Program-made: the position numbers and the translations under genes
Shown: piece by piece, positions 14,855 through 64,000 of the stretch
Layout: each line of letters opens with the position of its first letter
How positions within the stretch are numbered: the first letter of the stretch is position 1
The notes under the pieces: generated by a model
What the model saw: only the letters and a program-made list of their open reading frames with translations
Database searches by the model: none
What the model was told of the DNA's origin: nothing
Source: Patescibacteria group bacterium
Lineage (GTDB): Bacteria > Patescibacteriota > Microgenomatia > UBA10105 > UBA927
Reading direction: 5' to 3'
DNA: 64,000 nucleotides
Assembly (NCBI GenBank): GCA_003545435.1
Contig: DPYI01000025.1
Coordinates: 19,701 to 83,700, forward strand

Positions 14855-16522
14855 CTACTTCATACAATTCCTAATTCTCAAAACAACATCGTTTGTTATA
14901 TCAATGACCTTATGATCCGTAGAATCATAGTAAAATCCACGAATCTGATCAGAGTTGAATTTATTATTACACGAGTCTTTTTTAAGCAAATCAAGTGAAT
15001 GATAATATCCAAATCCTTGACCTCCGTCTTCAAAATAGCCTTGCTCAAGCATTCCCCAAAATGACATATCATATATTAATTTTTTTGGAATTTTTCCTGT
15101 ATCGTAAAAGAGAACCATAAATGTGAAACCGGGCCCCTGCTGGAGAGGCAGTCTCATGCCGGATACGCCATAAAAGCTTTCTGCGCTTCCCGTTGCATAC
15201 AATACGGGTTTTTCGGGAAGATCCGGGTATATGACCCGGACAGACTGAAGCATATTCTTCCGCTCTTCTCCGATAATTTTCTGATGCCGTATATCGCGGA
15301 TAATATATACACTTTGTTTATAGAGATACCCAACAGTAAATAAGGAAATACAGACTATAACTAATAATCGTAAATTTTTATTTTTATGACTTAATTCAAC
15401 AATTGAGGCTATTAAGCCCGAGATTAATAATCCGCCGGCTGCTGCCGCGAAAGAAAAATATCGGGAATCGAGATATTCACCGTTTCGATTTACTAAAGAA
15501 AACGGAATAAACGACACTACAAGAAGCAGGAATGAAATCAGGATAGCAAAGCGGTATTTTTTCCCAAAAAATAAAACACTGCTCATTCCAATAAACAAAA
15601 GAAGCGTACACCAAAGACCGACAATGTCAGTCATCATCAACTCCTGCACCACATGAATATTTTCAATATGTATGAGGCGTTCATAGCGGGACGAAAAAAC
15701 AATAGTAGATATAAAACGCATAACAGGAAGAGGAATAAATGTTTCACTGAAAGATATAAGGGGATACAGAAACGCATTTATTAGTATCCCTATCATCGGA
15801 GTTCCGCTTGATTCTGTTACTGCAAGCTGACTTTTCCATCCATGTATAAATATATCTGCAATCCGTACAATGATAATGAAAACAATGAATATAAAAAGAC
15901 TTGTATATCGTATGAATTCATCTTTCAATCCACCCAGGTCCCGCTTAGGTGCAGTAAATATGGGAAGAAGAGGCATCCAGGCAATGCTTGATTCCTTAAA
16001 GTAGTATGAAATAACCGCGCAGACAATACACCATATTCTCTTCTTCTTCAAAGCAAGGACAATTGACAGAAGCATAAAAAAAAGCGAGGGAAGAGCGGTA
16101 AATGACGTTGCCAGCCATGATACCGACTGATGACTTGCATAGCACACAGCATAAGATAATCCAGCAACGGTTGCAAAGATATGGGGAATGCCAAGAAGTC
16201 GTGCTATTTTACGAACCAATAATCCATTTATACTATGAACAAAAAGTGCAAATACTGCCCAGGGCAGAACATTCGTGCCGAACATATGAAACAATGAATA
16301 CTTGAGAACAGTGGAAAACGGACGATTTAAACCAACCAGAAGCAGGTGCAACGGAAATACTGACAATTCGACCTCGATTCCTCCAATCTTCGCAAGTCCC
16401 AATGAAACCCATTCATCCTGCTGGTAAAACGTAAATGGGAGATCGCGAAATGCGAAGAGGGCAAAACCTATGATAAGAAGCATTTCAAATACAGATACTA
16501 TGGTATAAGGTTTTTTCCTCAT
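14855..16522 (-). CDS. Polytopic membrane protein, paralog family E (putative GT-C glycosyltransferase/polymerase)
   Basis: 555 aa, more than 12 TM segments; C-terminal domain ...GQGFGYYHSLDLL...KVIDITNDVVLRIRNCMK is paralogous to 16679..18376. Confidence 0.55.
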   Translation of the reverse strand: MRKKPYTIVSVFEMLLIIGFALFAFRDLPFTFYQQDEWVSLGLAKIGGIEVELSVFPLHLLLVGLNRPFSTVLKYSLFHMFGTNVLPWAVFALFVHSINGLLVRKIARLLGIPHIFATVAGLSYAVCYASHQSVSWLATSFTALPSLFFMLLSIVLALKKKRIWCIVCAVISYYFKESSIAWMPLLPIFTAPKRDLGGLKDEFIRYTSLFIFIVFIIIVRIADIFIHGWKSQLAVTESSGTPMIGILINAFLYPLISFSETFIPLPVMRFISTIVFSSRYERLIHIENIHVVQELMMTDIVGLWCTLLLFIGMSSVLFFGKKYRFAILISFLLLVVSFIPFSLVNRNGEYLDSRYFSFAAAAGGLLISGLIASIVELSHKNKNLRLLVIVCISLFTVGYLYKQSVYIIRDIRHQKIIGEERKNMLQSVRVIYPDLPEKPVLYATGSAESFYGVSGMRLPLQQGPGFTFMVLFYDTGKIPKKLIYDMSFWGMLEQGYFEDGGQGFGYYHSLDLLKKDSCNNKFNSDQIRGFYYDSTDHKVIDITNDVVLRIRNCMK

Positions 16523-16571
16523 ATATACATGCAGAGATTAGAATCAATAACAAAACCTGATGGTTTGTCAC

Positions 16572-16654
16572 GTCATTGCGAGCGAAACGAAGTAAAGCGA
16601 AGCAATCTTTAGAATTATAGAGATTGCTTCGTCGTTGCACTCCTCGCAATGACA
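16572..16654. repeat. Composite palindromic intergenic element, copy B (GTCATTGCGAG...CTCGCAATGACA)
   Basis: Perfect 11-bp terminal inverted repeats GTCATTGCGAG/CTCGCAATGAC enclosing a second perfect hairpin CGAAGCAATCT/AGATTGCTTCG; lies between two tandem paralogs. Confidence 0.65.
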
Positions 16655-16678
16655 ATAAATGAGGTTTTGATACTAATT

Positions 16679-18376
16679 CTAATTAATACATCTCATGTCA
16701 ATTTCTTTCCTGATATCGCCTGTGATATCGATAAGTTTTCTTTCATTTCCGAAATAGTATAATCCGATAACCTGATCTGTCCGTAAAGCGCGATCTTTAT
16801 GAAAAAGATTACAAAGCGACTCCTTTTGCCAAAAATACCCAAATCCCTCTCCACCGATTTCCTTATACCCTTCTTCTAAAAACCGGCTTAAATATTTTTC
16901 ACGGATGAGTTGTCTGGGAATCTCATTCCTTTCTCTGAATGCCATCATGATCATAAATCCTGTCCCATATTGAAAGGGAACGACATTATTCTGGTAGAAA
17001 AAATTTCTATCCCCGGAAATATAGAAAATCGGTTTCTCAGAGAGCATCGGCACGATACGATTCATGTCTACAATCAGCTTCTGTATATCCATTGAATAAA
17101 GAACATTCTCATAGACATCCCTCTGAACAAAACTGATCTGTTTCCAGTAAAAAAACAATAATATAAATGCTACAATACATATCGACGGCATGACGCCAAA
17201 GAACCGCCGAAGAATAACAGAGACGTATTCCACACCCACCCCGAATATGAGTCCGAACCCGAAAATAGAATAATAGAGATACCGTGATTCTAAAAAGGAA
17301 GAATTCCTTTCAGGAAGATACATTGCCATCGGTAAGAATGATAAGACATACCAGAGAAGTCCGAATACTAAAAGTCTCCTCCTCTGTTTCATTTTTAAGT
17401 AAACGAGTAAAAACCCCCCAATAAGAATAAAAGAAAGAAGTGTTGATATCATATCGGACAGTATGGTCACGACGATGATATCCTTATTTGCCGCAACCCC
17501 CAGGAATTGATAGAGAAACACGCCAAAATGTTCACTTGTGCGAAAGAGGGTTCGGGGAGATATCATCATATGGGAAATGCTGATGAACGGGTACCAAACG
17601 CTGTTGAATATAATTCTGATAAGAATCTGTGTTGCTGTTGCCATTTCTGCAATGCTTTTAAACTGAAATAGGAGATACATGTTCCACGCAACAAAAAAAA
17701 TAAATAACGCAAAAATTCCTGCATATTTTCTAAAAAACCGTAAAATGTCTATTTTATTCTTGGAAAAAAAATACGGAGAAAACAAAAGGAGCGGCAAAAC
17801 GAAAATACAGCTGTTTTTGAAAAGAAACGCAATATAGAGAAATACAAAAGAAAGAAGGATGAGAACTTTCTTTCCGACGGCGAGAGTGGGCGGACGGATG
17901 ATAAATGCCAGATACACCATCGTGCTACTTAAAGTTGTCTGTACGACTGCACCAAACCATGAGATTGCCTGCTGACCGGAAGTTGGCACGGCAACTGACA
18001 AGATGCAAAGAAGTGACAAGAGAGAGTTTTTTGTCATTTTTTTGACTACAAAATAGGCAAGAATGATATTTATCGATCCGACAGCATAGCCAAATATCAC
18101 AAAAGGAGTCGCGTTTCCCGGAAAATAGTAGAAAAATACGTTATTTATCAGAGACCCGATAAACCGGAACCTTCCAGTAACCTGCAGGAGAATATTAGGA
18201 CTGATGCCGGCAAATAATCCATTTGCAAATACGCTTCCCATCTGTGTCCATTCGTCATTCAAAAAATATATGCGCGGCAAATCCTTAAATGCGATAGCGA
18301 ATGCAAAAAGAGATAGCGCAATTGAGGCGAATGGAATTATTTTTTGAAATTTTTTAGTTATCCGATTTTTTCTCAT
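16679..18376 (-). CDS. Polytopic membrane protein, paralog family E
   Basis: 565 aa; the same architecture and C-terminal motifs (GGEGFGYFWQKESL...KLIDITGDIRKEIDMRCIN) as 14855..16522. Confidence 0.55.
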   Translation of the reverse strand: MRKNRITKKFQKIIPFASIALSLFAFAIAFKDLPRIYFLNDEWTQMGSVFANGLFAGISPNILLQVTGRFRFIGSLINNVFFYYFPGNATPFVIFGYAVGSINIILAYFVVKKMTKNSLLSLLCILSVAVPTSGQQAISWFGAVVQTTLSSTMVYLAFIIRPPTLAVGKKVLILLSFVFLYIAFLFKNSCIFVLPLLLFSPYFFSKNKIDILRFFRKYAGIFALFIFFVAWNMYLLFQFKSIAEMATATQILIRIIFNSVWYPFISISHMMISPRTLFRTSEHFGVFLYQFLGVAANKDIIVVTILSDMISTLLSFILIGGFLLVYLKMKQRRRLLVFGLLWYVLSFLPMAMYLPERNSSFLESRYLYYSIFGFGLIFGVGVEYVSVILRRFFGVMPSICIVAFILLFFYWKQISFVQRDVYENVLYSMDIQKLIVDMNRIVPMLSEKPIFYISGDRNFFYQNNVVPFQYGTGFMIMMAFRERNEIPRQLIREKYLSRFLEEGYKEIGGEGFGYFWQKESLCNLFHKDRALRTDQVIGLYYFGNERKLIDITGDIRKEIDMRCIN

Positions 18377-19392
18377 AATTTCCTATCACGCACGAATGAA
18401 ACATAATACGAAATACGTGGGTATCTCATTATCTTTCTGAACAGCAATTCATCCGACATGCTCCTTATGTGTGCCTGTATGTAGCGTCTCATTTGTAGCG
18501 TTTTTTTACAATTTCGTATATTCCACAGTATCGCTTTTATAATAGACCAGCTAAACTGCAACCTTCCCCGAAGAAATGAATATAAAGCAAAACCAATACA
18601 TAAAAACACATGAATCGGCACTATCATAAGAAGCGCTTTGATCCCAAGATTCTTAAGGTAGGAACTGATCCGATTTTTAAATGAGTGGTACTGAATAAAT
18701 GCGCTGTTCATGGAGCTACTGGTTGCTCCCATTTTATGAAACACAACGGACGCGTGCACATAGATAATGCTGTATCCTGACAGCCAGATGCGGTGGCATA
18801 GATCTGTCTCCTCAAAATAGGCAAAATATGATGGGTCAAAAACATTTCCATCAACTAAAACAGCATCCAAAACCTGTTTCCTAAATAGCATGCATGCTCC
18901 TTTGGCTGTATAAAGGCAGATTCTTCTGTCAAATTTTTTTATATCTTTTTGTCCGAATCCGTAATGATATAAAAATCCCGTTGGTGTAAGAAATGCTCCG
19001 ATGCTGTCCAGCGTATCCGGTTTGTCCATAAGCAAAATTTTGCTTTGTGCTCCGCCAACTGATGCATCTTCTGCCATCTCTTTCACAAGCTCCGACAAAA
19101 ATGCTTCCGTAACTTTTACGTCATTATTCAAAAATAAGATATATTCCCCTTTTGTCTTTTGGTATCCGATGTTATTGGCATTGGAGAATCCCACGTTTTC
19201 ACTATTTTGAATGATGGTAGTCTTTGGATAGTGCTTTTTGACCCACTCGCATGATATATCATCGGAATTGTTGTCAACGAAAATAATTTCAAACTGCTTA
19301 TAGTCCTGTGTATGCAAAGACGTAAAACAGCCATGAAGCCATTTCATGCCATTCCAGTTTACGATAACAATGGAGACCAATCCCTTTTTCAT
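18373..19392 (-). CDS. GT2-family glycosyltransferase (soluble)
   Basis: 339 aa; LVSIVIVNWNGMKWLHGCFTSLHTQ...IIFVDNNSDD is a classic GT2 N-terminal domain. Confidence 0.75.
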   Translation of the reverse strand: MKKGLVSIVIVNWNGMKWLHGCFTSLHTQDYKQFEIIFVDNNSDDISCEWVKKHYPKTTIIQNSENVGFSNANNIGYQKTKGEYILFLNNDVKVTEAFLSELVKEMAEDASVGGAQSKILLMDKPDTLDSIGAFLTPTGFLYHYGFGQKDIKKFDRRICLYTAKGACMLFRKQVLDAVLVDGNVFDPSYFAYFEETDLCHRIWLSGYSIIYVHASVVFHKMGATSSSMNSAFIQYHSFKNRISSYLKNLGIKALLMIVPIHVFLCIGFALYSFLRGRLQFSWSIIKAILWNIRNCKKTLQMRRYIQAHIRSMSDELLFRKIMRYPRISYYVSFVRDRKL

Positions 19393-20234
19393 GCAAATCT
19401 CCCCCTTATATATCCCAGAAAAAGCGCGGTGGTTTCCATGATTTTCATGACGAGCATACCTACTCCGATTGCTGGTTGTTTGAAGAGCCGATCTGAATCG
19501 GAAAAAAACAAGGATAAGCGGGAGAATAGATTTGCCTGCCGCAGGCTTATGAAACGGTTTTCTGTCTTCCGGCTATACGCATACATACGCTTACCATAGT
19601 AATATTTCTTTTTCAAAAGAGCCCATAAAGAAATGTTGTCTTCGTTATGGATGATATACGCAGATATTCTTCCTATCGCAGCATGTCCATATGATGCTTT
19701 CAGTTTTTGAGGGAGATCAAAATCTTCCGGGCCTGTAAGCGTCTCGTCATATCCGCCAAGACGGATAAATGCGCTTCTTTTATAGAACCGGGCTGCCTCA
19801 ATCCATTCCACTCCTTCATAATACGTCCTTTCTAATGCTTTGCACTTAGCTAAAAAATTCTTGCCTTTTGACTTCTCCGGGATAACCATTGCCTGGTAGG
19901 GAGCGGTTCCTTTTTGGGATTTTTGCATTGCTTCTACACACTCCTCTATGACTTTTGGTGTCAGTTCCATATCCGCATCAATAAAAACAAAATACGTTCC
20001 CGTTGCTTTTGAGACTCCGAAATTCCGTTGGGCAGACCGTTCCGGACCTTTATCATAGACTCGCGCACCCAGCTTTTTCGCAATTGCCTTTGTCGCGTCC
20101 GTTGAGGCATTATCTACGACAACTGTCTCTACATGAGCATATGTTTGCTTATGGACGCTGCGTATGCAAGCCCTGATATGGGACTCCTCATTCCTAGCAG
20201 GAATAATAACGGAAACCACGCATTTATCTCTCAT
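19389..20234 (-). CDS. GT2-family glycosyltransferase
   Basis: VVSVIIPARNEESHIRACIRSV...VVVDNASTDAT; start trimmed to MRDKCVV (ATG 20234) to avoid overlap with the upstream FkbM gene. Confidence 0.7.
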   Translation of the reverse strand: MRDKCVVSVIIPARNEESHIRACIRSVHKQTYAHVETVVVDNASTDATKAIAKKLGARVYDKGPERSAQRNFGVSKATGTYFVFIDADMELTPKVIEECVEAMQKSQKGTAPYQAMVIPEKSKGKNFLAKCKALERTYYEGVEWIEAARFYKRSAFIRLGGYDETLTGPEDFDLPQKLKASYGHAAIGRISAYIIHNEDNISLWALLKKKYYYGKRMYAYSRKTENRFISLRQANLFSRLSLFFSDSDRLFKQPAIGVGMLVMKIMETTALFLGYIRGRFA

Positions 20235-21066
20235 AATCTGTAGCATAGGCGCTTTTTTGCTTAAACAGAATATCAACAGAAGTTATCTTTCCTTCTTCTT
20301 CATATTGCCGCCCGATACGTTCAATAATAAACGGATGTCGAAAATGTGTTAGATAAGAAATGACTTTTCCCAAATCCCCGGAATTCGGCCTGTGCAAACT
20401 GGCTTCTATCAATACATAACGGCATTTCTTCAGCGTCTGTTTAGCTGATATGAGAACGGTGTATTCGCTTCCTTCGGTATCGATTTTCAATAGGTCGATA
20501 ATGTTGGTCTTTCTTACACAATCAATATCATCTAATCTCATTCCCGGAACAACCTCAATCCTATCCTTATCTGAATAGGGAAAAAAAGATGACAGAAGCG
20601 TTGTTTGGGGAATATGCATCTTCATGGTTTTCGAAATCCCTACTGCCAGATGAACGGATGAAGGATCATTTTTTTTCAGGAACCTGTATGCTTCTTCTAT
20701 CGGTTCGACACTGCAAACATGCTTGGCAGAGAGGTAGCTATAAGAAAAAAAATTAAACTGACCGATATTCGCGCCAATATCTATAATCGTACTCCCTTTT
20801 TTTATATATCCTTCCATAAACGCATTATCCACGTAAACGCTCTGAAGAAAGGAAATTCCGAATTGGTCGTTAAAGTGATAGGTTCGTCCGAAGATGTGTA
20901 TCTTTCCCGATATCGGCATATTGATGATCTTTTTTATGGATAGCACCACAAGGAGATAGTATTTTTTTAGGAGAAACTCTAATTTTAGAGTATCAGGAAG
21001 GTGAAGCAGACAAAACTGCCAATCAAGTTCCAAAGAACGAAAAATAAACCACCATATCATTTTCAT
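20224..21066 (-). CDS. FkbM-family SAM-dependent methyltransferase
   Basis: 280 aa; GSTIIDIGANIGQFNFFSY... Rossmann motif with FkbM-type architecture; overlaps the upstream gene stop. Confidence 0.65.
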   Translation of the reverse strand: MKMIWWFIFRSLELDWQFCLLHLPDTLKLEFLLKKYYLLVVLSIKKIINMPISGKIHIFGRTYHFNDQFGISFLQSVYVDNAFMEGYIKKGSTIIDIGANIGQFNFFSYSYLSAKHVCSVEPIEEAYRFLKKNDPSSVHLAVGISKTMKMHIPQTTLLSSFFPYSDKDRIEVVPGMRLDDIDCVRKTNIIDLLKIDTEGSEYTVLISAKQTLKKCRYVLIEASLHRPNSGDLGKVISYLTHFRHPFIIERIGRQYEEEGKITSVDILFKQKSAYATDYER

Positions 21067-22754
21067 AACTCGTGTTTACTTCTGACAGGCCTCTCCCCGG
21101 CTCGGTTTATCATCTCAGGTGATATAATCTGATTTCTCCTATAGATTACCACAACGCTCCCGTCACTTGGTACTATCACTTCACCGATTGCTTGGTATGC
21201 ATGGGGATAAACATCCAAAATTTCATGAAAACAACCAGAAGATACCCCGTCAACAGGTGATGATACGTTTCTGGCAATAATGTAATCTTTATTTAAAAAA
21301 TCCATCATATTGAACGTTCCAATGCTGGATACATAGGAAAAAAGAAATACTCCGTTTGTCAAATAGTGTTCAATGGAATAGAGTGCATTAGTCAGAGGCT
21401 CATGGACAATCAAGACCGACACCTTTGTTGGCTTCTCCCTGCTGTCTTTTGCAATTATTGACACGACACTGTTTGCGTGAATATACTCTTTTACCGGAGG
21501 CCAGACCATGGATGTAAGATAAATCCTTCGCGGATGCTGGATAAAAGAAGGGAGAACGATATCCTTGAGCCCCTGTTTTCCCATAATTCCTATCCCCCAC
21601 AGACACCCGAAATAACTCATGACACTGAATGTGCTTATGAGAATAAATAGCGTCCAATAAAGACGAGGAGCTTTAATGCCTGTCAGCCAAATCCCGGAAA
21701 GCACGGCGATAATCGGATAAAGAGGAACAATAAACCGATCATCTTTCCACAAAAACGCCGCGGAAAAAACAATGTACGGAATCATGAAACTTAGGAGCAA
21801 TCCGCCGTATTTTGTAATCCGGAAAAAACAGAACCCGCATCCCAGGAGGAACAACATAAAATAGAAAACTGTATTTTGGGAAATAATGTTTAGGTAGTAC
21901 ACGAGCGTTTTGACAGACCAGGGATTTGCGTATTCAATCCCTTTGTATGCTGTTACCCATGCCGAGCTGTTTATACTGTTCCTTCGAACATAATCGAAAA
22001 ACAGAGAAATATTGGGAATGTAATAAAGAAACAAGGACAACATAACTGATAGAATTATGAAAATAAATGCATTTGATAACCGAATTATCTTTTGACTTTT
22101 TCTTTCTTTTTTCCATGAAACAACAAGGATAGACAATTCCCATAGTATTGCTCCTGAAATGAATATCGGTGCTACCCATCGCGTCAGGGATCCTCCAACA
22201 AACATAAGGGCTGCATAAACGCTCATCCGTCTGTTTAAAAATCCGTTACTTTTTAAAAGAAACAGCATCGATAAGGAAACCCACATGGTTGTTGCCGTTT
22301 CAGAATAAGCAAAATGCATATAAAAGAGAGGAAATCCCATTCCTGCAAAAATCAGAGAGGCAAGAACAGCGCTTCGCGTATTACCAAATTCTTTTACAAT
22401 AAAGTAGATAGCCAAAAGTGTCACGATAAAGTATATTCCGTTTACAAGAAGAGAGACAAAATAGCTTTGTTCCGGCCCGGTGATCGTAAGGACGATTGCA
22501 CTTATGAGAGGATAGAGCGGTTGCCTGTAGTCACTGGCCTTCATAAGTCTCGCCCATAGATCCGGAGAAGGAGACCGCAGTAGAGAGTAAAATGTTCTGG
22601 ATAATCCCACGTAATGGTGCTCGTCCCACTGCGGATACTGTCTGGTTTTTGAAATATATAGCATGTGACCGATAAAAATTCCTATGCATATGAAAGTCAG
22701 AAACAGTGTAGGAATATCACTCTTGGCTATCAATCTCATTTTTTTAATAATCAT
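21063..22754 (-). CDS. ArnT/PMT-like GT-C glycosyltransferase (GT39/GT83-like)
   Basis: Start trimmed to MIIKKMRL (ATG 22754); TM1 followed by PQWDEHHYVGLSRTF, the DE motif of ArnT/PMT lipid-linked sugar transferases; more than 10 TM segments; C-terminal soluble domain. Confidence 0.6.
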   Translation of the reverse strand: MIIKKMRLIAKSDIPTLFLTFICIGIFIGHMLYISKTRQYPQWDEHHYVGLSRTFYSLLRSPSPDLWARLMKASDYRQPLYPLISAIVLTITGPEQSYFVSLLVNGIYFIVTLLAIYFIVKEFGNTRSAVLASLIFAGMGFPLFYMHFAYSETATTMWVSLSMLFLLKSNGFLNRRMSVYAALMFVGGSLTRWVAPIFISGAILWELSILVVSWKKERKSQKIIRLSNAFIFIILSVMLSLFLYYIPNISLFFDYVRRNSINSSAWVTAYKGIEYANPWSVKTLVYYLNIISQNTVFYFMLFLLGCGFCFFRITKYGGLLLSFMIPYIVFSAAFLWKDDRFIVPLYPIIAVLSGIWLTGIKAPRLYWTLFILISTFSVMSYFGCLWGIGIMGKQGLKDIVLPSFIQHPRRIYLTSMVWPPVKEYIHANSVVSIIAKDSREKPTKVSVLIVHEPLTNALYSIEHYLTNGVFLFSYVSSIGTFNMMDFLNKDYIIARNVSSPVDGVSSGCFHEILDVYPHAYQAIGEVIVPSDGSVVVIYRRNQIISPEMINRAGERPVRSKHEL

Positions 22755-22770
22755 ACATATCAGCGAATCA

Positions 22771-25208: not shown

Positions 25209-25211
25209 ACA

Positions 25212-27262: not shown

Positions 27263-27296
27263 ATACTTGTCTTATACAGAATACGTTCATTCATCT

Positions 27297-27389
27297 TGTC
27301 ATTGCGACCCCGCCTTTGGCGGGGGAAGCAATCTTTATAATAAAGATCGCTTCGTCTCCCGACGTAACGTCGGGATCCTCGCGATGACA
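27297..27389. repeat. Composite palindromic intergenic element, copy C (GTCATTGCGACC...CTCGCGATGACA)
   Basis: Termini match copies A and B; three internal hairpins (CCCCGCC-TTTG-GCGGGGG; GAAGCAATCTTTA/TAAAGATCGCTTC; TCCCGACG-TAA-CGTCGGGA); lies between the flippase start and the GT2 stop. Confidence 0.65.
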
Positions 27390-27435
27390 GAGTGCGTAAG
27401 TTATGATATACAATAAGTTCGTTCTCATCTTTTTG

Positions 27436-31804: not shown

Positions 31805-31805
31805 A

Positions 31806-41521: not shown

Positions 41522-41525
41522 ACTT

Positions 41526-43019: not shown

Positions 43020-43025
43020 AGAATC

Positions 43026-43061: not shown

Positions 43062-43070
43062 TAAGTCGAA

Positions 43071-44579: not shown

Positions 44580-44583
44580 CTTA

Positions 44584-47977: not shown

Positions 47978-48058
47978 ATTGCTAAAGATATGCTTTATTG
48001 TACCATGTAATGAAAGATGGATTTATTATATACTCATAGAAGAGAAAGATTCATTACC

Positions 48059-52729: not shown

Positions 52730-52753
52730 ATAATTCAGATAGTATATCAGAAA

Positions 52754-56496: not shown

Positions 56497-56509
56497 GATA
56501 GTATGGCGT

Positions 56510-57982
56510 TTATTGCACCAGTTGTCGCCACTCTTCCGTCCATGCATAAATAGATGACGGATTGATGCGTATCCACTGTTCTTCGACAAGACGGGCACTG
56601 GATGAAGCTGAAAGGTCTGCTATCGTTCCTGAAGCCGTCGAAATAATCGGCGCAAGAAGACCATCCTGTGTCCTTCTTCGTGTAAAACCAATTGCTCTCC
56701 CCTCATCGGATAACAGATTTTTTTCATCCATATAAAGAACAATAGGTACTGACCTTGGTGCTTCTTCATATTTCCAATCATAAAAAGCAAATGTTTCACC
56801 CGGATACATCTGAGTGAGCATACTACGAACCTCTTTTGACGCTCTTGCTGTCAAATTGATGTGTTCAGAAAACACTTCATTTCCCGTTTTCATCATGGTA
56901 AACACAAAAACAACGAAAATCAGTGCTATGCCGAGATGTCGTTTGATGCAGTATACCCGATACAGCACCCAGGCCGTAATCAAAATGATGAACGGATGAG
57001 TGAATGTGATAAAACTGGAGTAAATCGGAACCCTGGTATATCTGACGAGCACAGTCATGAATCCAAACGAAAGAAATATAAAAAGCCAAGATGTATTCAT
57101 CTTCTTTCGGATTATTTGCAGCACAAAAAAACCAACAGCCAATACCGCAATCAGAATGGCAATCTGTGGAAGTCCGCCGATAATATGCGCCCATTCTTTC
57201 GGCCAAAATTCCGATAAGTATGTAAGCCACCGTCTTCCCAGAACATCAAGTGATATGTTAAATTGATCAAATCTGTAATAATATATCATGTTTTTAATAT
57301 TCACAAATTCATTCGATGTATCCCAAAGAACTATAGGAAGCATCGGAAGAAGCGCTCCAAAAAGAGCAATCAATAAAAATCGTATTTTCGTTTTTCCTCC
57401 TAATATAAATGCCATAAGAACCGGTATTCCCAACGACATACCCTGAAGATGGATCGACGCTCCGAAACCGGCAAAAAAACCCATTCCGAATGCCGAAAGC
57501 AAAGTCTTTTTTTTCATATACCAGATGGCGCAAACAATGGTAAGGAAAGAAAAAATAGGAATTGGGGTTTGATTGGTCAGATTTACTGACTGGGCAATCT
57601 GAGCAGTCGAGAGAGCAGTCAGACCGGCAAGCAGCAAACCGAAAAAACCATTTTCCATTCTTTTCCCCAACATTCCCATTCCGATAATGAGAAGTCCATA
57701 CAATGCCGTTAAAAAAATCCAGGGGGATACAACTGAATATCTACATATGACGGTCGGAACCATGAGCAGCCAGTACCACGTTCCGGAAGTCTGAAATGGT
57801 CCTGCTGAGGAAAACGGACCAACTAACGGAATTTTGCCTTCCTTCAGGGCTTCACGGGCAACAATAGCATCATGAGCCTGATCGTATGCAAGGCCAAAAC
57901 GTTCAGAATAATTCCAAAACCTCAATATGCATCCCAATAGAGTAATGCTAAAAAGAACAATAAGAAATGTATTTTTTTTCAT
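56510..57982 (-). CDS. Polytopic membrane protein, family-B-related
   Basis: 490 aa; AYDQAHDAIVAREALKEGKIPLVGPFSSAGPFQTSGTWYWLLMVP parallels the GFDQGKHW...GDEVGG...GWYYLLAIPF motif of family B. Confidence 0.5.
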   Translation of the reverse strand: MKKNTFLIVLFSITLLGCILRFWNYSERFGLAYDQAHDAIVAREALKEGKIPLVGPFSSAGPFQTSGTWYWLLMVPTVICRYSVVSPWIFLTALYGLLIIGMGMLGKRMENGFFGLLLAGLTALSTAQIAQSVNLTNQTPIPIFSFLTIVCAIWYMKKKTLLSAFGMGFFAGFGASIHLQGMSLGIPVLMAFILGGKTKIRFLLIALFGALLPMLPIVLWDTSNEFVNIKNMIYYYRFDQFNISLDVLGRRWLTYLSEFWPKEWAHIIGGLPQIAILIAVLAVGFFVLQIIRKKMNTSWLFIFLSFGFMTVLVRYTRVPIYSSFITFTHPFIILITAWVLYRVYCIKRHLGIALIFVVFVFTMMKTGNEVFSEHINLTARASKEVRSMLTQMYPGETFAFYDWKYEEAPRSVPIVLYMDEKNLLSDEGRAIGFTRRRTQDGLLAPIISTASGTIADLSASSSARLVEEQWIRINPSSIYAWTEEWRQLVQ

Positions 57983-58061
57983 AACTACTGCATAAGATGA
58001 ATATCTCTTAATTCCTATTCTTTTATAATTGATAATAGTATACTACGCTTATATACCTTTC

Positions 58062-59771
58062 ATGAAGCATACGATTGCACTTTTATTTATAATTTTCTTT
58101 GCTTCAATAATCCGGCTTCTGCTCTTGGACAGAATTCCAACTGCGGTAAGCGGGGATGAGCTGACATATATTGTCACTTCCCGTTCAGTGTATCTAACCG
58201 GTTCTGACATAACAGGAACCTGGCCATTATGGAAAAGCTCTCTATTTCAATATCCCCCTAAAGAACATCAGGCGGAATTACCATACCTTATCATTCTTCC
58301 TTTCGTAGGTTGGTTTGGAAATTCCTTTTTCTGGATCAGATTTCCGTTTGCTGTAATGGGAGTATTAATCGTACTTCTTATGTATCTCATAACGAAACGT
58401 CTTTTTGATAAACAAACAGGGATTGTTGCTGCAGTCTTTGCAGCTGTTAATCCATGGTTGGTATATATGAGCCGGACTGCTTATGAGATGATTCCCGCAA
58501 CGCTGTTTATTCTCTCTTCGATATATTATATTCTGGACAAACAAAAAAAACATATCTATCTGGCTATTCCGTTTCTTATCCTTGCTTTTTATTCCTACAT
58601 CGGCACAAAACTCATCATTCTTCCCCTCATACTTCTTGTTGTTTTCTATGCACGCAACACTTCCCGTAGGAAAAACACACTGCTGCCCCACATCGTCATT
58701 ACTCTTACTGGAATTTTTCTCGTATGCTTCTTTGTCCTTATGCAGAAAGGACAGGGTGGCTCCAGAATGGGAGATTTGTTTCTTCCCAGTGACTCCACCA
58801 TTCAACAAACAGTCGATCAAATGCGTAAAATAACCATTGACAATCCTGTCCGAAATGTACTGATTAATAAAGCCACCGTTTATATATGGACGCTTGCAGG
58901 AAAAGCATTCGCTGCTTTTTCTCCTACGTATCTCTTTTTTGAAGGAGATCTTTTTTTCTCTCTCTGGCATGGTTTTCTCTATGTTATTGATGCACTGTTT
59001 ATTTGCATCGGATTCATCTTTCTTGCATATAAAGATAAAAGGCTTGGACTGTTTTTTGCTCTGCTTCTGTTCCTTTCCATTTTCCCTCAGCTTTTCCATA
59101 AAAATCAGGCCAACTTCTCCAGCCATACAGCACTTCTTATACCTTTTTTGATCATCCTATCCGCCTACGGTGTACGCCAAATCATCGGTATATTCAGTTC
59201 AAAAAACATTCGAAGGCTTGCTGGATTGGTTTTTGCGTTTCTTTATCTTGGGTGTGTCGTGTATTTCCTTCATACGTATTTTTTCCGTTATCCCCTGCAG
59301 GAACGCAATGAATTCCACGTACGGACGCTCTCACGGTATCTTAAACTTACCGAAAATAGGGATACTCGAGTATTTATAAAAACTCCGCATCCTTACAACG
59401 TATTTAAAAAATATGTATTTTATACAAACAATATCCAAAAATCTTCAATACCGATTCTTCGGAAAGCGTATACCAATAAGAATTATACTCTGGGAAACAT
59501 CGTATTTCTTCCCTGTTATACAGATATCCCCAGTGATGGCATATCCTCTTCACTCATCATTGATTCTGATTGTTCAGAGACTATCAATGGACAGGGAAAT
59601 ATACATATTGCACGGCTTGTCGATGGAGGATCTTCCTACACCATATACTTTGATAGAATATGTGGAGATTTTTCTTTAAAAAGATATCCGTATGGCATAA
59701 CGTGGGACGATCTTTCTGTTGAGAAGATGCCTCTCAAGAAATTCTGCGAAACCTACATATCCGAATATTAG
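58062..59771 (+). CDS. ArnT/PMT-like GT-C glycosyltransferase (DE motif)
   Basis: Start trimmed to MKHTIALLFIIFFASIIRLL (ATG 58062); TM1 followed by IPTAVSGDELTYIVTSRSVY (DE motif); about 12 TM segments; C-terminal soluble domain. Confidence 0.6.
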   Translation: MKHTIALLFIIFFASIIRLLLLDRIPTAVSGDELTYIVTSRSVYLTGSDITGTWPLWKSSLFQYPPKEHQAELPYLIILPFVGWFGNSFFWIRFPFAVMGVLIVLLMYLITKRLFDKQTGIVAAVFAAVNPWLVYMSRTAYEMIPATLFILSSIYYILDKQKKHIYLAIPFLILAFYSYIGTKLIILPLILLVVFYARNTSRRKNTLLPHIVITLTGIFLVCFFVLMQKGQGGSRMGDLFLPSDSTIQQTVDQMRKITIDNPVRNVLINKATVYIWTLAGKAFAAFSPTYLFFEGDLFFSLWHGFLYVIDALFICIGFIFLAYKDKRLGLFFALLLFLSIFPQLFHKNQANFSSHTALLIPFLIILSAYGVRQIIGIFSSKNIRRLAGLVFAFLYLGCVVYFLHTYFFRYPLQERNEFHVRTLSRYLKLTENRDTRVFIKTPHPYNVFKKYVFYTNNIQKSSIPILRKAYTNKNYTLGNIVFLPCYTDIPSDGISSSLIIDSDCSETINGQGNIHIARLVDGGSSYTIYFDRICGDFSLKRYPYGITWDDLSVEKMPLKKFCETYISEY

Positions 59772-60646
59772 CAATAGTTCTTCAGTCGTTTTAGAAAGAT
59801 CGGGAAGAAAAAAGGTAATGCGCGGCAAAATCCTTTCACCATAATTGCATCTCCCCGTATTATACTTGTACACAATCGTATTGGAATCCATATCGTACCC
59901 AAAAAGAGTTGATATGCTGATGCGTGTTTCCAGATAAAGAAAAACTGATTGCGGAAAGCGGTTTCTTTTATCATATTCCTGGAATAACGCTGAAAAATTT
60001 TTCCGTCTTCATGAAAATGCTTTACCACACTCTTCGGTTCAAATAATACCCGGTATCCCTTTTTTTTGGCTCGATATGAAAGGTCAATATCTTCCCAATA
60101 AAAGGGGTTATATATCGTATCCATACCTCCTAATTCATTCCATATGGTACGTCTGAAGGCACTACTTCCGCCGGACACCCACGCAGTGTCCGTTTTATCT
60201 ACTTCTCCCCGTTTATGTATATAAAACCCTTTTTCCCATCGACCGATTCCCCTGCCCCGCAAAACTATTTTCCCTTTCTCTATGCTTTTATCCATACACC
60301 CTACGGCAAATACAGTCGGATCGGAAAAATGAGAAATAAGCGGCTCAAGAAATCCTTTTTCCGGTTCAACATCAGTGTTCAGAAGCACAACGATATCGGT
60401 TTTGGCTTCCCGTACACCCACATTGACCGTAGAAGCAAACCCCTCATGCCTGTCTTTTCTAATAGTCCTGATATCGGGAAAATTCTCCTGTATATATGAA
60501 ACAGACTCATCAGTAGAACAATCATCGACAATGATAAGTGTTGCACTCCCGCTGTGCTTTGCCACCTCGCTGAGATGTTTCTCCAACAACAGTTTTCCAT
60601 TCCAATTCGGTATGATGATACTGACGGACATTTTTGGTGTCTTCAT
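59768..60646 (-). CDS. GT2-family glycosyltransferase (soluble)
   Basis: 292 aa; MSVSIIIPNWNGKLLLEKHLSEVAKH...IIVDDCSTDESV; 4-nt convergent overlap with 58062..59771. Confidence 0.75.
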   Translation of the reverse strand: MKTPKMSVSIIIPNWNGKLLLEKHLSEVAKHSGSATLIIVDDCSTDESVSYIQENFPDIRTIRKDRHEGFASTVNVGVREAKTDIVVLLNTDVEPEKGFLEPLISHFSDPTVFAVGCMDKSIEKGKIVLRGRGIGRWEKGFYIHKRGEVDKTDTAWVSGGSSAFRRTIWNELGGMDTIYNPFYWEDIDLSYRAKKKGYRVLFEPKSVVKHFHEDGKIFQRYSRNMIKETAFRNQFFFIWKHASAYQLFLGTIWIPIRLCTSIIRGDAIMVKGFCRALPFFFPIFLKRLKNYC

Positions 60647-62337
60647 GGGGTTTTTATATTTCCTTGGGCAATATATATTGCCGGTGTTCCGTCTAAATAG
60701 TTAATGCGATACAAAGGATCAATAGTAGGGGAAAATTCCTTCGGCAAACCTACAAATAATGTTCTCTTTTTGCTAAAATCATCCAAACTGAATTTGTGGA
60801 ACTCAAATATGTCATACGTATTCCCCTCTTCTCCCCATCCTCCGGATTTCGTCCCTCCCTGTTTGCTATACAAAGCCGGATCGTATTTTGAATAATACAG
60901 CATAAATATATAAGGCCATTCCAATGCCGAAGAAACAACAATGCGATCATAAGAACTTTTATTTTTCATAAGATATTCCGTCATTTCCTTCCTCCCGTAT
61001 ACCCAATCTTTGGATCTTTCATAAGGGATATGCAATATATATTGATGTACATAGTAGTATGAAGATAAACAAATCACGAAACCGAAAATTCCCATAAAAA
61101 TATGTACAGGAATCCTTTTTTCCCGTAAAAAATCATATACACAAAAAACGCCATGCGCTGTGATGATCATTAAAGGAATTGTCATGCCCAAAACCCGTAT
61201 GGCATGAGGTATGTCCCAAGTAATCGACGCAGGAATTGGAGCAATAAGAATCCATAAAATAATATATATCGCCTCACGTTTATCGGATTTTTGTACAAGA
61301 TAATAAAGTCCTAACGGGATAAAAGGAAGCATCCACAAAAAGCAAAGTCCGACAAACGGAGTATGATGCTGTTTTTCATCGTAATCAAAAAAAAGAAAAG
61401 CGGGAGAAAAATGGGTAAAATATCCTTTCAAAACAATATCGGCAGATGTAAATACTGTGTTGTCATGGAATAATCTTCTCGGGAGATTAATACCAAGTTT
61501 CGCATCATAAAACATCTCTTTCTCTTTTTGTTTATATATATCAAGTGCCTGCTGAGTGCTAAATACGCTTGTTCCTTTTACCCGAATATGAACATTATAA
61601 AAAAGCGTGTCACCAATGAGAATAGTGCCGAAAAATCCTGCCGCTACAATAAATCTGACCAAATCATTTTTATTTACTTTCCTCAGATCTTTCCAATAAA
61701 GAAGTGTTAGCACAAGGCCGAGCATGGGTGCAAGAACACGGAAACTTAGGTAAGAGTAGGTTGCCAAACCAAACGAAAGAACCGAAAGCAGAAGAAGTCC
61801 GGGTCTATGCTTCATTCCATAAAGAAACAGAGTTGCCCCCAATGTGATAAAAAAGAGTCCAACGTTAGCCTCAGCAGCCATCCTGGAAAATTGAATGTGC
61901 CACGGAAGAATTGCCAGAAGAAAAGAGGAAAGAAGAGGTATTCGTTCATTGTTAATTGTTGATTGCTTATTGATTGTTGCATTTTGTCCAAGCGCACAAA
62001 GTCCCTTCACAAGAAAAAACAAAGATAACACAGTTAGTACCCCGAAAAATGCTGAAGGGAATCTGACGCTAAAGTCGTTATATCCAAATACTGCAATAGA
62101 TCCGACCGTTAGATATGCATAAACGGGAAGTTTGTAATCATCCAATGATCGGAAATATACCGGCAGAAATTTCCCAAATTCGTCTTTCCCGGTTTTGAGA
62201 ACGGAATACGCATTGTATCCGAATGCTGCTTCATCCCAATTTAAAGACGGCGGGACTGACGGAAACTTATAAAACCGGAAAAATACCGCTATCAAGAGAA
62301 TGCATCCTAACGCAATTTTCACAAAACGCTTCTCCAT
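60643..62337 (-). CDS. ArnT/PMT-like GT-C glycosyltransferase (GT39-like), paralog family C
   Basis: Start trimmed to MEKRFVKIALGCILL (ATG 62337); PPSLNWDEAAFGYNAYSVLKTGKDEFG is homologous to 44584.. and 46277.. Confidence 0.65.
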   Translation of the reverse strand: MEKRFVKIALGCILLIAVFFRFYKFPSVPPSLNWDEAAFGYNAYSVLKTGKDEFGKFLPVYFRSLDDYKLPVYAYLTVGSIAVFGYNDFSVRFPSAFFGVLTVLSLFFLVKGLCALGQNATINKQSTINNERIPLLSSFLLAILPWHIQFSRMAAEANVGLFFITLGATLFLYGMKHRPGLLLLSVLSFGLATYSYLSFRVLAPMLGLVLTLLYWKDLRKVNKNDLVRFIVAAGFFGTILIGDTLFYNVHIRVKGTSVFSTQQALDIYKQKEKEMFYDAKLGINLPRRLFHDNTVFTSADIVLKGYFTHFSPAFLFFDYDEKQHHTPFVGLCFLWMLPFIPLGLYYLVQKSDKREAIYIILWILIAPIPASITWDIPHAIRVLGMTIPLMIITAHGVFCVYDFLREKRIPVHIFMGIFGFVICLSSYYYVHQYILHIPYERSKDWVYGRKEMTEYLMKNKSSYDRIVVSSALEWPYIFMLYYSKYDPALYSKQGGTKSGGWGEEGNTYDIFEFHKFSLDDFSKKRTLFVGLPKEFSPTIDPLYRINYLDGTPAIYIAQGNIKTP

Positions 62338-62341
62338 ATTG

Positions 62342-64000
62342 TTATTCATAACGTAATTGTACTGTGTGAATACCCGCCGGGACAACTATTCCTATAAAAA
62401 TATAGTTGGTTCTGAATGTCTTTACCTTCTTTCCATCTACAAACGCTTTCCAATTTTTGTGGTATATATTTCCGATAAAAAGTAATCTCTGGGCATTCGT
62501 CTGAACCGAAACGTCAATGGCGTTGTCCCTATATGTTGTTATATCTGCTCTCTCTTCAGATGAAATCGGGTCTTTATCGGTGTAAACTTCTTCCTCAATG
62601 ACTCCCTGTGTCCCCATCTGAAACGAGGGAGCGTACAGAGCCTCAATAATCTTTTTTTCTTCCCGTATCACGTCAACATGGTCAAGCAGGTATACCCGAG
62701 GGAGCACGCCCATAAACTCATACACTCTCGTTTGGCCTTCCTGCATGATTTTTTGAAAACGACTATCAAGAATATCTGAAAGGGAAAGAACAAAACGTAC
62801 TCCAAGAAGCTTAAATAAAGGAGAGGTAATATTTTTAGGTGTCACAATGCGGTTAAAACCGAACGGTCCGGTTATATTCGGTTCTCCCCGTTCCATAGCT
62901 GCTATAAACTTTTCATATCTGACACTATACAAAGGATCGTACCCGGATATTGATTCGATGCCGTAATACAAGCTCACATTCGGCGGCATGATTCTGTCGT
63001 CCACGGAGGTTATCCGATACGGTTTTGGTTGTTTTTCAAAAAAAGAAATAATTTCTGTTTTTGGAAAAAATAGACGTGAATCAGTAAACGGAGTAAATTT
63101 CCATGCAAAACGCGACAGATCAAAAAAAGATATACCTATAATGAGTACTGCTCCGGTCAAGGGGATAACCATATTTCGTCTCTTGTTCATTAATTCAAAA
63201 ACAGTACGAATGATAACCACAAGGAAAATTAAAATGCATATAAAAGTCGGAAAAAGGATGTTCCGGCTAGTTACGTCTAATTGTTCCTTTGGAATTCCAT
63301 ACGTATTATTTTTTACTACATACCATATGCATCCAAATAATATTGCTGCCACGGCCACTGTTATTACCGTATATTTTTTCCTGCTGTTATGTATCCAATC
63401 TTCTAATCCGATTGCTGCCAACACGCACAGTCCGACATCAACAATGGCAAGCAGTCTTGTCGGTTGAAGCGATGAAAGGATCGGAATCCGAAAAACATAC
63501 GGTGTGCCAGAAACAGGTGTGGGAAGAGCAAATAGAAGTCCGATAAGTACTACAGAAAACCAAAATGCTATATGACGTTTTTTCTTTGAAAAGATTGAAT
63601 ACAGTACAAAAAATAATCCAGCTATTCCGATATATCCGCAAAACTCCCCGTAATTCCATATCCCCCAATAGTTTAGAGTAGCAGGGTTACCAAAAAAATC
63701 AGGGGTCACAAACTGTATAAGATTTTGAAAAGGAAGAAAAAATCCTTCATTTTTAACTAATGCTCCGTCCTGTAATCTGCTCATACCCGGGAGTTCTGAA
63801 AGAACGGGTATCCAATGGACAGATGTCAATAACATAAACAAACCGAGACTTCCCGCAATTTCCAAAAATACACCTGTACGAAAAATAGCGGATGGTTTTT
63901 GATCTAAAAAACGGAAAATCGCGTAGGCAATCAATAAAATAAAGGAATATAAAAATACCTGACTGTGTCCGGCAAAATATTGTGCTGCTAAAACCAAACC
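62342..64000 (-). CDS. YfhO-family membrane glycosyltransferase, C-terminal about 550 aa (gene start lies beyond the window end)
   Basis: The ORF runs to position 63997 with no N-terminal LWNPY region in the window; C-terminal NIYHKNWKAFVDGKKVKTFRTNYIFIGIVVPAGIHTVQLRYE matches the YfhO C-terminal signature. Confidence 0.6.
   Translation of the reverse strand, partial: GLVLAAQYFAGHSQVFLYSFILLIAYAIFRFLDQKPSAIFRTGVFLEIAGSLGLFMLLTSVHWIPVLSELPGMSRLQDGALVKNEGFFLPFQNLIQFVTPDFFGNPATLNYWGIWNYGEFCGYIGIAGLFFVLYSIFSKKKRHIAFWFSVVLIGLLFALPTPVSGTPYVFRIPILSSLQPTRLLAIVDVGLCVLAAIGLEDWIHNSRKKYTVITVAVAAILFGCIWYVVKNNTYGIPKEQLDVTSRNILFPTFICILIFLVVIIRTVFELMNKRRNMVIPLTGAVLIIGISFFDLSRFAWKFTPFTDSRLFFPKTEIISFFEKQPKPYRITSVDDRIMPPNVSLYYGIESISGYDPLYSVRYEKFIAAMERGEPNITGPFGFNRIVTPKNITSPLFKLLGVRFVLSLSDILDSRFQKIMQEGQTRVYEFMGVLPRVYLLDHVDVIREEKKIIEALYAPSFQMGTQGVIEEEVYTDKDPISSEERADITTYRDNAIDVSVQTNAQRLLFIGNIYHKNWKAFVDGKKVKTFRTNYIFIGIVVPAGIHTVQLRYE

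Follow-up and report, generated by a model that had tools for sequence, protein, structure and literature searches.

Why should a bacterium of the Candidate Phyla Radiation (CPR) carry, side by side, more than twenty membrane glycosyltransferases? The question is posed by a 64,000-nucleotide stretch of contig DPYI01000025.1 (GenBank assembly GCA_003545435.1, positions 19,701 to 83,700 of the forward strand), hereafter the window, in which the block from 14855 to 64000 is dominated by polytopic proteins of the GT-C glycosyltransferase superfamily; genes are named here by their first window coordinate. The host lineage is the ultra-small Candidatus Gottesmanbacteria from Rifle groundwater: exact protein matches put the window on contig LCFF01000001.1 of assembly GCA_000998865.1 (record positions 26366–90365, reversed). 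Identical proteins are also found in a 'Microgenomates group' bin and several reassemblies, and all the window copies that we retrieved are 99.98–100% identical. CPR bacteria, or Patescibacteria, represent a large share of bacterial diversity and are presumed to live attached to other cells; their genomes are about 1 Mb in size, their cells are monoderm-like, and the chemistry of their envelope is almost unknown. The answer that we favor, with a probability of roughly 60%, is that the locus would form a conserved line of outer-face enzymes building or decorating an envelope glycan. We see one pathway rather than a collection of loose genes because the gene junctions are tight, the genes lie mostly on one strand, the core order is kept among relatives, GT-C genes are dense, and collinearity with a relative spans at least 81 kb. 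The product would be an envelope glycan since the parts fit extracytoplasmic glycosylation and the large number of GT-C enzymes relative to the few donors fits the synthesis of arabinogalactan (AG) and lipoarabinomannan (LAM) in mycobacteria.

Composition and extent of the locus

Between 14855 and 64000 lie 34 genes, one of them truncated by the window end, and a listing of open reading frames (ORFs) combined with a hydropathy scan gave 24 polytopic products with 6–13 predicted transmembrane (TM) segments. We placed 22 of the 24 in the GT-C superfamily: four YfhO proteins, three YfhO/PTPS-related proteins, four sets of PMT_2-like proteins (with four, four, two and two members) and three proteins of PIG-V/MptA type, one of them weakly assigned. 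The other two are a Wzx-type flippase (26000) and an unannotated membrane protein (34443), while the interleaved soluble enzymes comprise eight glycosyltransferases of families GT2 and GT4 and one FkbM methyltransferase. With 22 of the 34 genes GT-C-like, such a density cannot have arisen by chance. A preliminary description of the window had proposed a glycosylation super-locus dominated by GT-C-type enzymes and including a Wzx flippase and an FkbM methyltransferase; Pfam, BLASTP and conserved acidic residues in loop 1 confirm its general character, and Pfam found the two accessory genes (26000 and 20224). Its figure of about 24 GT-C-like proteins is right for the polytopic proteins but drops to 22 for GT-C, with the flippase and 34443 removed and 28113 weak, and its 11 soluble GT2/GT4 enzymes are eight within the block, or 11 if the upstream genes 1495, 8081 and 9025 are counted. 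A 23rd GT-C-like gene, the marginally AftD-like 4103–6331, lies upstream of the start then given to the locus.

The window is nearly all coding, with a GC content of ~0.39 and almost every gene on the minus strand; of 45 gene junctions, 35 are overlaps or gaps of at most 10 bp, and the largest gap is 234 bp. The locus extends beyond both window ends. We read ~80 kb around it (window positions −9.7 kb to +70.6 kb) and found, past 64000, the remainder of the YfhO gene, a second YfhO gene, one GT4 and three GT2 genes. Upstream of position 1 (positions 11189–21176 of the retrieved record L010) are genes for Acyl_transf_3, GT4, epimerase, WbqC and GT2 proteins, two GH130-like proteins (phosphorylase-type fold), a B12-binding radical S-adenosylmethionine enzyme, a formyltransferase and a methyltransferase. 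Beyond that point, two relatives have another five polytopic GT-C-like genes, one polytopic protein without a match to the window and two GT2 genes of synthase-like type. In the relative Ga0265297_10000238 (~60% protein identity), segments collinear with our locus fall within record positions 42.3–123.1 kb, a span of 81 kb or more in which ~25 kb in the middle (76.7–101.5 kb) was unread and neither locus end was reached. We conclude that a conserved block of at least 80 kb exists in Microgenomates and that the window covers its central 64 kb.

Families, motifs and folds of the membrane proteins

We scanned the window proteins against Pfam, grouped paralogs with all-vs-all BLASTP, and compared the families with hhalign. 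Pfam gave no match for ten membrane ORFs of the block, and NCBIfam provided no useful name for the unannotated membrane proteins. The YfhO proteins (family A; 48017 on the plus strand, 50405, 54103 and 62342) are mutually 25–30% identical and score 73.8–90.2 bits against PF09586, with its gathering cut-off at 28.5 bits. Family B (30188, 37300 and 39833) has the motif HDGxxHxxR exactly in all three copies; among the 30 sequences formed by these copies and their orthologs, 23 match PTPS_related and 10 match YfhO, and hhalign links the family to family C with a probability of 92.9%. Family C consists of 41526 and 43071 (44% identical) and the distant 31806 and 56510, with a PMT_2 match in 21 of 26 members; family D consists of 44584, 46277, 60643 and the distant 58029; and family E is the pair 14855 and 16679, 29% identical and with DE(W) in loop 1. 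Matches to PMT or PMT_2 were found in seven window proteins (21063, weakly, 22771, 31806, 44584, 46277, 58029(+) and 60643), and six PMT-like proteins share a DE motif (44584, 46277, 60643, 58029+, 21063 and 22771). All-vs-all BLASTP thus reproduces the paralog families listed in the preliminary description (four YfhO, three HDGxxHxxR and five or six DE-motif proteins and the 14855/16679 pair); of its four GFDQGKHW proteins, all are related but only 41526 and 43071 have the exact motif.

The remaining GT-C candidates belong elsewhere. Homologs of 52754 bear the JGI name 'Gpi18-like mannosyltransferase', and its family matches that of 33287 at an hhalign probability of 96%, the latter having a precomputed MptA_B_family match. 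Neither 33287 nor 52754 could be linked by hhalign to the PMT_2-like family C, and the locus therefore contains at least two deep GT-C lineages; 28113 was not linked by hhalign to either 33287 or 52754.

Several features agree with a GT-C assignment. All 22 candidates are polytopic, with 7–13 TM segments by hydropathy, and the GT-C fold was found; the AlphaFold2 (AF2) model of family E, one of two proteins predicted (the other being 34443), consists of a TM helix bundle and a C-terminal domain. When families B–E were compared as sequence profiles with all PDB chains, no match was returned, and a fold search was needed. An acidic motif (DE, DQ or HDG) directly follows TM1 in window proteins, the DE pair in family D, 21063, 22771 and both members of family E, and the positive charge of the N terminus suggests that this loop lies outside. 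The preliminary description had left the conservation of these motifs to be checked, and acidic loop-1 residues proved conserved in every family: D36/E37 in 123 of 124 family D sequences and D52 in 48 of 50 YfhO sequences, D35, H39 and R42 invariantly among the 30 sequences of family B (H34 and G36 nearly so), D37 invariantly in family C, and E37 and W38 invariantly in family E. Acidic residues are likewise conserved in the families of 33287 (D23 and D105) and 52754 (D33 and D120). For family E, a word-limited search of a database of 5.8 billion clusters found 18 homologs, and all those with a taxon label are of Microgenomates type; three proteins that we looked up are 'RgtA/B/C/D-like domain-containing' in UniRef and 'hypothetical protein' at NCBI.

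The other large membrane protein, 34443, starts at 36731. Its AF2 model (predicted local distance difference test score 88) shows TM1, a (beta/alpha)-barrel, a beta-sandwich, six TM segments and a C-terminal alpha/beta domain, and Foldseek matched it to 3lm3, a putative glycoside hydrolase/deacetylase (3.5e-12), as well as to family 4 carbohydrate esterase (CE4) deacetylases and family 57 glycoside hydrolases (GH57). None of its 173 homologs has a Pfam match, and the few named by their source are all 'hypothetical protein'. Judging from the model, it is a conserved non-GT-C protein with a deacetylase- or hydrolase-like ectodomain, and such a fold points to a polysaccharide substrate. A few homologs (P0122, P0124, P0127 and P0128) are ~1300 amino acids (aa) long, which suggests fusions.

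These assignments bear on an alternative in which the main acceptors would be surface proteins (S-layer proteins, pilins or large adhesins), O-glycosylated by the PMT- and YfhO-like enzymes and extended from polyprenyl-phosphate sugars in the manner of actinobacterial Pmt and the streptococcal PgfS-dependent system. Bacterial Pmt enzymes also lack the MIR domain, and since they do, its absence from every window protein in the Pfam scan leaves room for protein acceptors. Yet characterized bacterial PMT_2/YfhO enzymes modify, among other targets, lipid A and not proteins. No MIR or other protein-binding domain and no WWDxG-bearing oligosaccharyltransferase was seen in the locus, the matches to PMT (GT39) are partial and N-terminal, as for residues 15–120 of 46277, and WWD, which would mark an STT3/PglB/AglB enzyme, occurs in no window protein. 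We also considered 58029 as an oligosaccharyltransferase and rejected it for its lack of WWDxG, its STT3 match being marginal (25 bits, with the cut-off at 24.5 bits). Further, the window encodes no candidate substrate with Ser/Thr-rich tracts, and the deacetylase/hydrolase-like 34443 indicates a polysaccharide. Other characterized PMT_2/YfhO enzymes of bacteria act on teichoic acids and wall polysaccharides (PMC8035078). We regard proteins as unlikely to be the main acceptors and favor a wall- or membrane-anchored polysaccharide.

Predicted sugar donors and their possible transfer across the membrane

A glycan assembled on the outer face needs lipid-linked donors, and three GT2 enzymes look like polyprenyl-phosphate-sugar synthases, a type already proposed for them and supported by NCBIfam, with which the soluble glycosyltransferases were compared. 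The first, 8081, aligns over its full length to PgfS (4.6e-67) and ArnC (2.1e-33), and its two C-terminal TM segments are those of the GtrB/ArnC type. The other two are soluble: 25212 matches ArnC (4.5e-14), PgfS and PpgS (profile positions 4–219 of 226), while 27436 matches AglJ (3.1e-34), PpgS (6.6e-19) and ArnC (1.1e-18) and has orthologs up to 72% identical; matches of the two also include dolichyl-phosphate-hexose transferase. The remaining four GT2 enzymes are generic by NCBIfam. With these three genes in the locus, the GT-C enzymes may use donors linked to lipid phosphate. The Wzx-type 26000 sits between 27436 and 25212, an order kept in relatives, and we infer that it may act as the flippase. 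No GtrA-type flippase was found in the ~80 kb read, and the window has no room for one, as no intergenic gap exceeds 234 bp.

The sugars themselves may come from the upstream module at 286–14620. It contains a glucose-1-phosphate cytidylyltransferase (13835), a 4,6-dehydratase (12888), RfbH (2652, an equivalog match at 636 bits with the cut-off at 423 bits), an RfbH-like paralog (286) and epimerases, and in addition an acetolactate-synthase-like thiamine pyrophosphate (TPP) enzyme (10887–12872, plus strand), a split transketolase (6328–8090), one GT4 and two GT2 enzymes. The gene set suggests CDP-3,6-dideoxy sugars and possibly branched-chain sugars; the combination of a TPP enzyme and a transketolase presumably recalls two-carbon branched sugars such as yersiniose (YerE).

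Conservation and variation among relatives

A scan with family D, with one genome per species, gave 313 relatives, from which we took the best 80 with informative names, mostly Gottesmanbacteria and Levybacteria; counts of presence refer to the 51 full loci. Each 20-kb neighborhood in the relatives matches the window in density (median 4.3 polytopic ORFs per 10 kb, compared with 4.7 here), and the full loci have a median of nine GT-C-like ORFs per 21.6 kb. The core order in relatives is 46277-44584-43071-39833-38967-36761-33287-31806-30188-29185-27436-26000-25212-24087, at 40–70% identity, and orthologs of the pair 46277/44584 are found in 51 of 51. Paralogs within the families are 23–45% identical, whereas orthologs in the 80 Gottesman- and Levybacteria loci reach 40–70%; as orthologs from different phyla are thus more alike than paralogs from the same genome, the families predate the Gottesman/Levy split and each copy has been retained. 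As a recent event, the tandem expansion of paralogs proposed earlier is contradicted by these identities, and recent duplication or cassette recombination was also rejected at the DNA level, where the repeats are at most 80% identical and at most 251 nt long and reflect merely diverged coding similarity. On the question of whether comparable loci are common features of well-studied taxa, such loci turned out to be common, yet only in metagenome-assembled genomes (MAGs) of uncultured Microgenomates.

The same comparison provides the material for a second alternative, that the locus is a set of independent and partly redundant GT-A/GT-C modules adding optional side chains to a polymer made elsewhere, and so giving a strain-variable surface for phage evasion or host matching. 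The copy number of peripheral YfhO, D and C members does differ between genomes. In Ga0265297_10000238 (L093 2666–9992), the slot of the GT2-GT2-FkbM genes (18373–21066) is taken by another sugar cassette, with Hexapep acetyltransferases, two DegT aminotransferases, an FdtA-type isomerase and GT2 genes (3-acetamido-dideoxyhexose type). In a sister strain (ENA ERZ4902915), identity is 99.8% as far as window position 48619, beyond which the strain's allele of the YfhO gene 48017(+) diverges abruptly, leaving 64% protein identity over the gene (L004 1–1800, window 47936–50482); the two contigs retrieved from this sample (L004 and L009) end at 48.6 and 56.3 kb, flanking the YfhO block, and the pattern looks like allelic replacement in the YfhO/52754 block. 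Known systems are also paired, with B. subtilis and L. lactis each having three sets of a GT-A and a GT-C enzyme (PMC8035078). Against this, variation is confined to the periphery, the sugar cassettes and one YfhO allele, while the core shows strict conservation and synteny in two candidate phyla, and most GT-C enzymes are unpaired since they far outnumber the synthase-type GT2 enzymes. The paralogs are ancient, and neither mobile elements nor the usual devices of switching are seen: phase variation was rejected as the window has no homopolymers (A/T of at least 10, G/C of at least 7) and no simple sequence repeats, switch-like inverted repeats are absent from it, and a mobile island was rejected with no tRNA genes, no Rfam matches and a uniform GC content of 0.34–0.47; the Pfam scans of window proteins gave neither an integrase nor a transposase. 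Independent modules are thus rather improbable, and the combinatorial or variable system envisaged in the preliminary description fits poorly with orthologs that keep the same order in 80 loci.

That many of the polytopic proteins are instead scaffolds, polymerases or ligases, transporters or degenerate copies, inflating the enzyme count, is a very remote prospect: profile matches behind 21063, 28113, 4103 and the window copies of family B are sub-threshold and the large protein 34443, once counted, proved not to be GT-C, but conservation among 50–124 orthologs is at least 93% at the loop-1 acidic residues and at many further positions, all ORFs are intact, and orthologs kept over deep divergence, in a host lineage with typically small and streamlined genomes, argue for selection on function.

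A proposed assembly line and its relation to known systems

On our preferred reading of an outer-face assembly line, cytoplasmic enzymes would produce unusual nucleotide sugars, of the CDP-dideoxyhexose type and others; the GtrB/ArnC/DPM1-type GT2 enzymes 8081, 25212 and 27436 would put single sugars on polyprenyl phosphate; and the Wzx-type 26000 would flip the lipid-linked sugars, as proposed for streptococcal GacK. Outside, the ~22 GT-C enzymes would extend an acceptor on the outer face with these sugars, linkage by linkage, while the ordinary GT2 and GT4 enzymes would probably make a lipid-linked primer or core inside the cell; the product may then be modified by the 34443 protein and the FkbM methyltransferase. 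Every old paralog would have its own fixed linkage, and few donors would serve many transferases, as in the synthesis of mycobacterial AG and LAM.

Several points weigh against such a pathway. No initiating phosphoglycosyl transferase of WbaP/WecA type, Wzy polymerase, LytR-CpsA-Psr (LCP) ligase or ATP-binding cassette (ABC) exporter was found in the ~80 kb, and this leaves the start of the polymer and its anchoring unexplained. Nor did we identify an acceptor there, the sequence holding no backbone genes for teichoic acid, lipopolysaccharide or secondary cell wall polysaccharide. Three donor synthases are seen for ~22 transferases, and their NCBIfam scores are far under the equivalog cut-offs; many Pfam matches are near or under the curated cut-offs, too, and 28113 and 21063 are weakly assigned. 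The functions given here all derive from distant homology, and the ideas of one linkage per paralog and of a single product come solely from conservation.

An extracytoplasmic variant of glycosylation that combines a soluble GT-A enzyme, a Wzx-type flippase and a GT-C enzyme has been described (PMC8035078). The multicomponent systems (GtrA/B/C, CsbB-GtcA-YfhO, GacI/J/K/L, ArnC-ArnT and RgtE-RgtA-D) have the same parts list as our locus, with its anchored (8081) and soluble (25212 and 27436) synthases, a Wzx-type candidate and YfhO and PMT_2 GT-C enzymes. They have, however, one GT-C per module, and model genomes have at most three GT-A/GT-C pairs (PMC8035078), whereas here ~22 GT-C enzymes are found in 50 kb and more outside the window, with three visible synthases and no GtrA-type flippase. 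In mycobacteria, many GT-C enzymes share few polyprenyl-phosphate donors (PMC3229680), and the assembly of AG, lipomannan and LAM in mycobacteria and corynebacteria (Emb, AftA-D, PimE and MptA/B/C) follows the same logic as that proposed for our locus, which has MptA_B-family and AftD-like matches of its own. Differences are that the GT-C genes here form one near-continuous, mostly codirectional block, while the mycobacterial system is largely dispersed, and that YfhO, PTPS_related and PMT_2 dominate, with no arabinose- or galactan-specific genes recognized.

The cwps, gac and epa loci of streptococci, lactococci and enterococci are likewise large envelope-glycan loci mixing GT2/GT4 enzymes, flippases and extracytoplasmic GT-C enzymes. 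They are made up of a conserved and a variable part (PMC9574508, PMC10821137). Few of their genes are of GT-C type, and they further include genes for rhamnan synthesis, for an ABC exporter and for an LCP ligase, three additions that were not seen here. Wzx/Wzy loci for O-antigen and capsule share with ours the RfbF/RfbG/RfbH-like sugar module, the GT2/GT4 enzymes and a Wzx-like protein, but GT-C genes dominate here, and no Bac_transf, Glycos_transf_4, Wzy_C or Wzz match was found in the window or its 10-kb flanks. The preliminary description could match the locus to no described type; its chemistry does fit the multicomponent systems (PMC8035078) and mycobacterial GT-C assembly, and what stands without precedent in the literature searched is its scale and clustering.

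In publications on glycosyltransferases of CPR, Microgenomates or Gottesmanbacteria, we found no description of this locus. The nearest remark counts '29 genes of glycosyl transferases' for one Microgenomates genome (PMC7143001), and a recent CPR perspective does not mention glycans. The protein families and their chemistry are already known; a single conserved block that gathers over 22 GT-C genes, and probably over 30, in a very small genome has no precedent in the same literature. Nor have family E and the family of 34443, which make at least two conserved families for which there is no current Pfam model. Most likely, Gottesmanbacteria build an undescribed complex coat of cell-surface glycan outside the membrane. 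More tentatively, Microgenomates (Gottesmanbacteria, Levybacteria and relatives) may make a lineage-specific complex heteroglycan, assembled almost wholly outside the membrane by more than 25–30 GT-C enzymes from a ~100-kb block, that determines how the surface meets hosts and phages. To our knowledge, this would be the largest clustered GT-C assembly line. That a reduced genome, assumed to be ~1 Mb, has at least 80–100 kb of conserved outer-face glycosyltransferases implies a central place for a complex surface glycan in the biology of these cells; on the more tentative reading, a ~100-kb block would take up roughly a tenth of the genome, and the glycan would be a main determinant of the episymbiont surface towards hosts and phages. 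The locus would be a clustered counterpart of the mycobacterial system, most of which is dispersed, and its dozens of diverged GT-C enzymes, ordered in defined series of orthologs, are useful for studies of donor and acceptor specificity.

Features of the window and minor observations

Table 1. Genes and modules of the window with their assignments (loci, number of the 51 full loci with an ortholog)
Position	Strand	Feature	Evidence
286..14620	mixed	Sugar-nucleotide module, upstream of main block	Pfam; NCBIfam
4103..6331	-	742-aa polytopic protein, marginal AftD-type GT-C	PF11847 1.9e-6, 26.6 bits (cut-off 26 bits)
8081..9028	-	GtrB/ArnC/PgfS-type GT2 with two C-terminal TM, predicted membrane-anchored polyprenyl-phosphate-sugar synthase	NCBIfam; hydropathy
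14855..16522	-	Family E GT-C, QQDEW loop 1, C-terminal alpha/beta domain predicted outside membrane	No Pfam match
16679..18376	-	Family E paralog, 29% identical to 14855, LNDEW loop 1	BLASTP; motif
18373..19392	-	GT2, generic	Glycos_transf_2 8.8e-25; generic NCBIfam matches only
19389..20276	-	GT2, generic	Pfam; NCBIfam
20224..21066	-	FkbM-family methyltransferase, probably sugar O-methylation	Methyltransf_21 4.4e-18; TIGR01444 over cut-off
21063..22970	-	PMT_2-like GT-C, QWDE loop, 10 TM (weak assignment)	PMT_2 1.2e-3, sub-threshold; motif
22771..24090	-	PMT_2 GT-C, TFDE loop	PMT_2 1.7e-9, over cut-off
24087..25208	-	GT4, cytoplasmic	Glycos_transf_1 3.4e-34
25212..26003	-	Soluble DPM1/ArnC/PpgS-like GT2, predicted polyprenyl-phosphate-sugar synthase	NCBIfam
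26000..27262	-	Wzx-type flippase, 11 TM	Polysacc_synt 1.3e-8
27436..28128	-	Soluble AglJ/PpgS/DPM1-like GT2, predicted polyprenyl-phosphate-sugar synthase	NCBIfam
28113..29207	-	8-TM protein, possibly PIG-V-like GT-C, weakest assignment of locus	Mannosyl_trans2 in 1/6 orthologs, 1.5e-8
29185..30276	-	GT4, core gene	Pfam; synteny
30188..31804	-	Family B (HDGxxHxxR) YfhO/PTPS_related-type GT-C	PTPS_related sub-threshold; BLASTP; motif
31806..33290	-	Family C PMT_2-like GT-C, GPEQGNDF	PMT_2 2e-6, over cut-off; BLAST link to 43071, 41526
33287..34480	-	MptA/MptB-family-like GT-C, core gene, 34 loci	Precomputed Pfam PF26314; hhalign
34443..36731	-	762-aa membrane protein, not GT-C	AF2 model; Foldseek
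36761..37303	-	Small DUF5667 protein, N-terminal TM, 17 loci	Pfam
37300..38970	-	Family B GT-C paralog, lineage-specific extra copy	PTPS_related sub-threshold; BLASTP
38967..39866	-	GT2, core gene, 49 loci	Pfam
39833..41584	-	Family B GT-C, core gene, 44 loci	BLASTP; ortholog set
41526..43019	-	Family C GT-C, GFDQGKHW	BLASTP; motif; ortholog set
43071..44579	-	Family C GT-C, GFDQGKHW, core gene	PMT_2 in 21/26 family members; D37 invariant
44584..46284	-	Family D PMT/RgtA-D-like GT-C, DWDE, core gene, 51 loci	Pfam; conservation
46277..47977	-	Family D GT-C, SWDE, core gene, 51 loci	PMT 2.4e-6; PMT_2 4e-6
48017..50482	+	YfhO-family GT-C, opposite strand	YfhO 1.4e-20
50405..52729	-	YfhO-family GT-C	YfhO 1.5e-25
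52754..54154	-	Gpi18/PIG-V-like GT-C	Homolog names; PF06728 or PF09594 in some homologs; hhalign
54103..56598	-	YfhO-family GT-C	YfhO 1.3e-20
56510..57982	-	Distant family C member, AYDQ loop (AYDQAHDA)	BLAST 2e-8 to 43071; motif
58029..59771	+	Distant family D GT-C, PMT_2 and weak STT3 N-terminal match	Pfam
59768..60646	-	GT2	Pfam
60643..62385	-	Family D GT-C, NWDE	Pfam; BLASTP
62342..64000	-	YfhO-family GT-C, truncated by window end (762 aa in full record)	Pfam

The true start of 21063 is probably internal, given that the ORF overlaps its neighbor by 200 nt. The DUF5667 gene 36761 recurs within the syntenic core of many relatives, with the MptA_B-like gene on one side and the family B and GT2 genes on the other. 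The plus-strand gene 58029..59771 (L007 10876–12618), intact and encoding 580 aa of PMT_2/STT3-like protein, is absent from the gene calls listed in the GenBank record, which has ORFs of 253 aa and 53 aa on the other strand; the ENA reassembly calls the gene (569 aa), and as the DNA is identical in both assemblies, the missing call is an annotation gap. About half of the related MAG contigs bear the title 'uncultured Gammaproteobacteria bacterium', and isolated ones are named 'Pacearchaeota', 'Saccharimonadales' or 'Limnocylindrales'; all the same, these contigs carry the syntenic core of Microgenomates type, and their titles are probably placeholders or wrong labels or result from misbinning.

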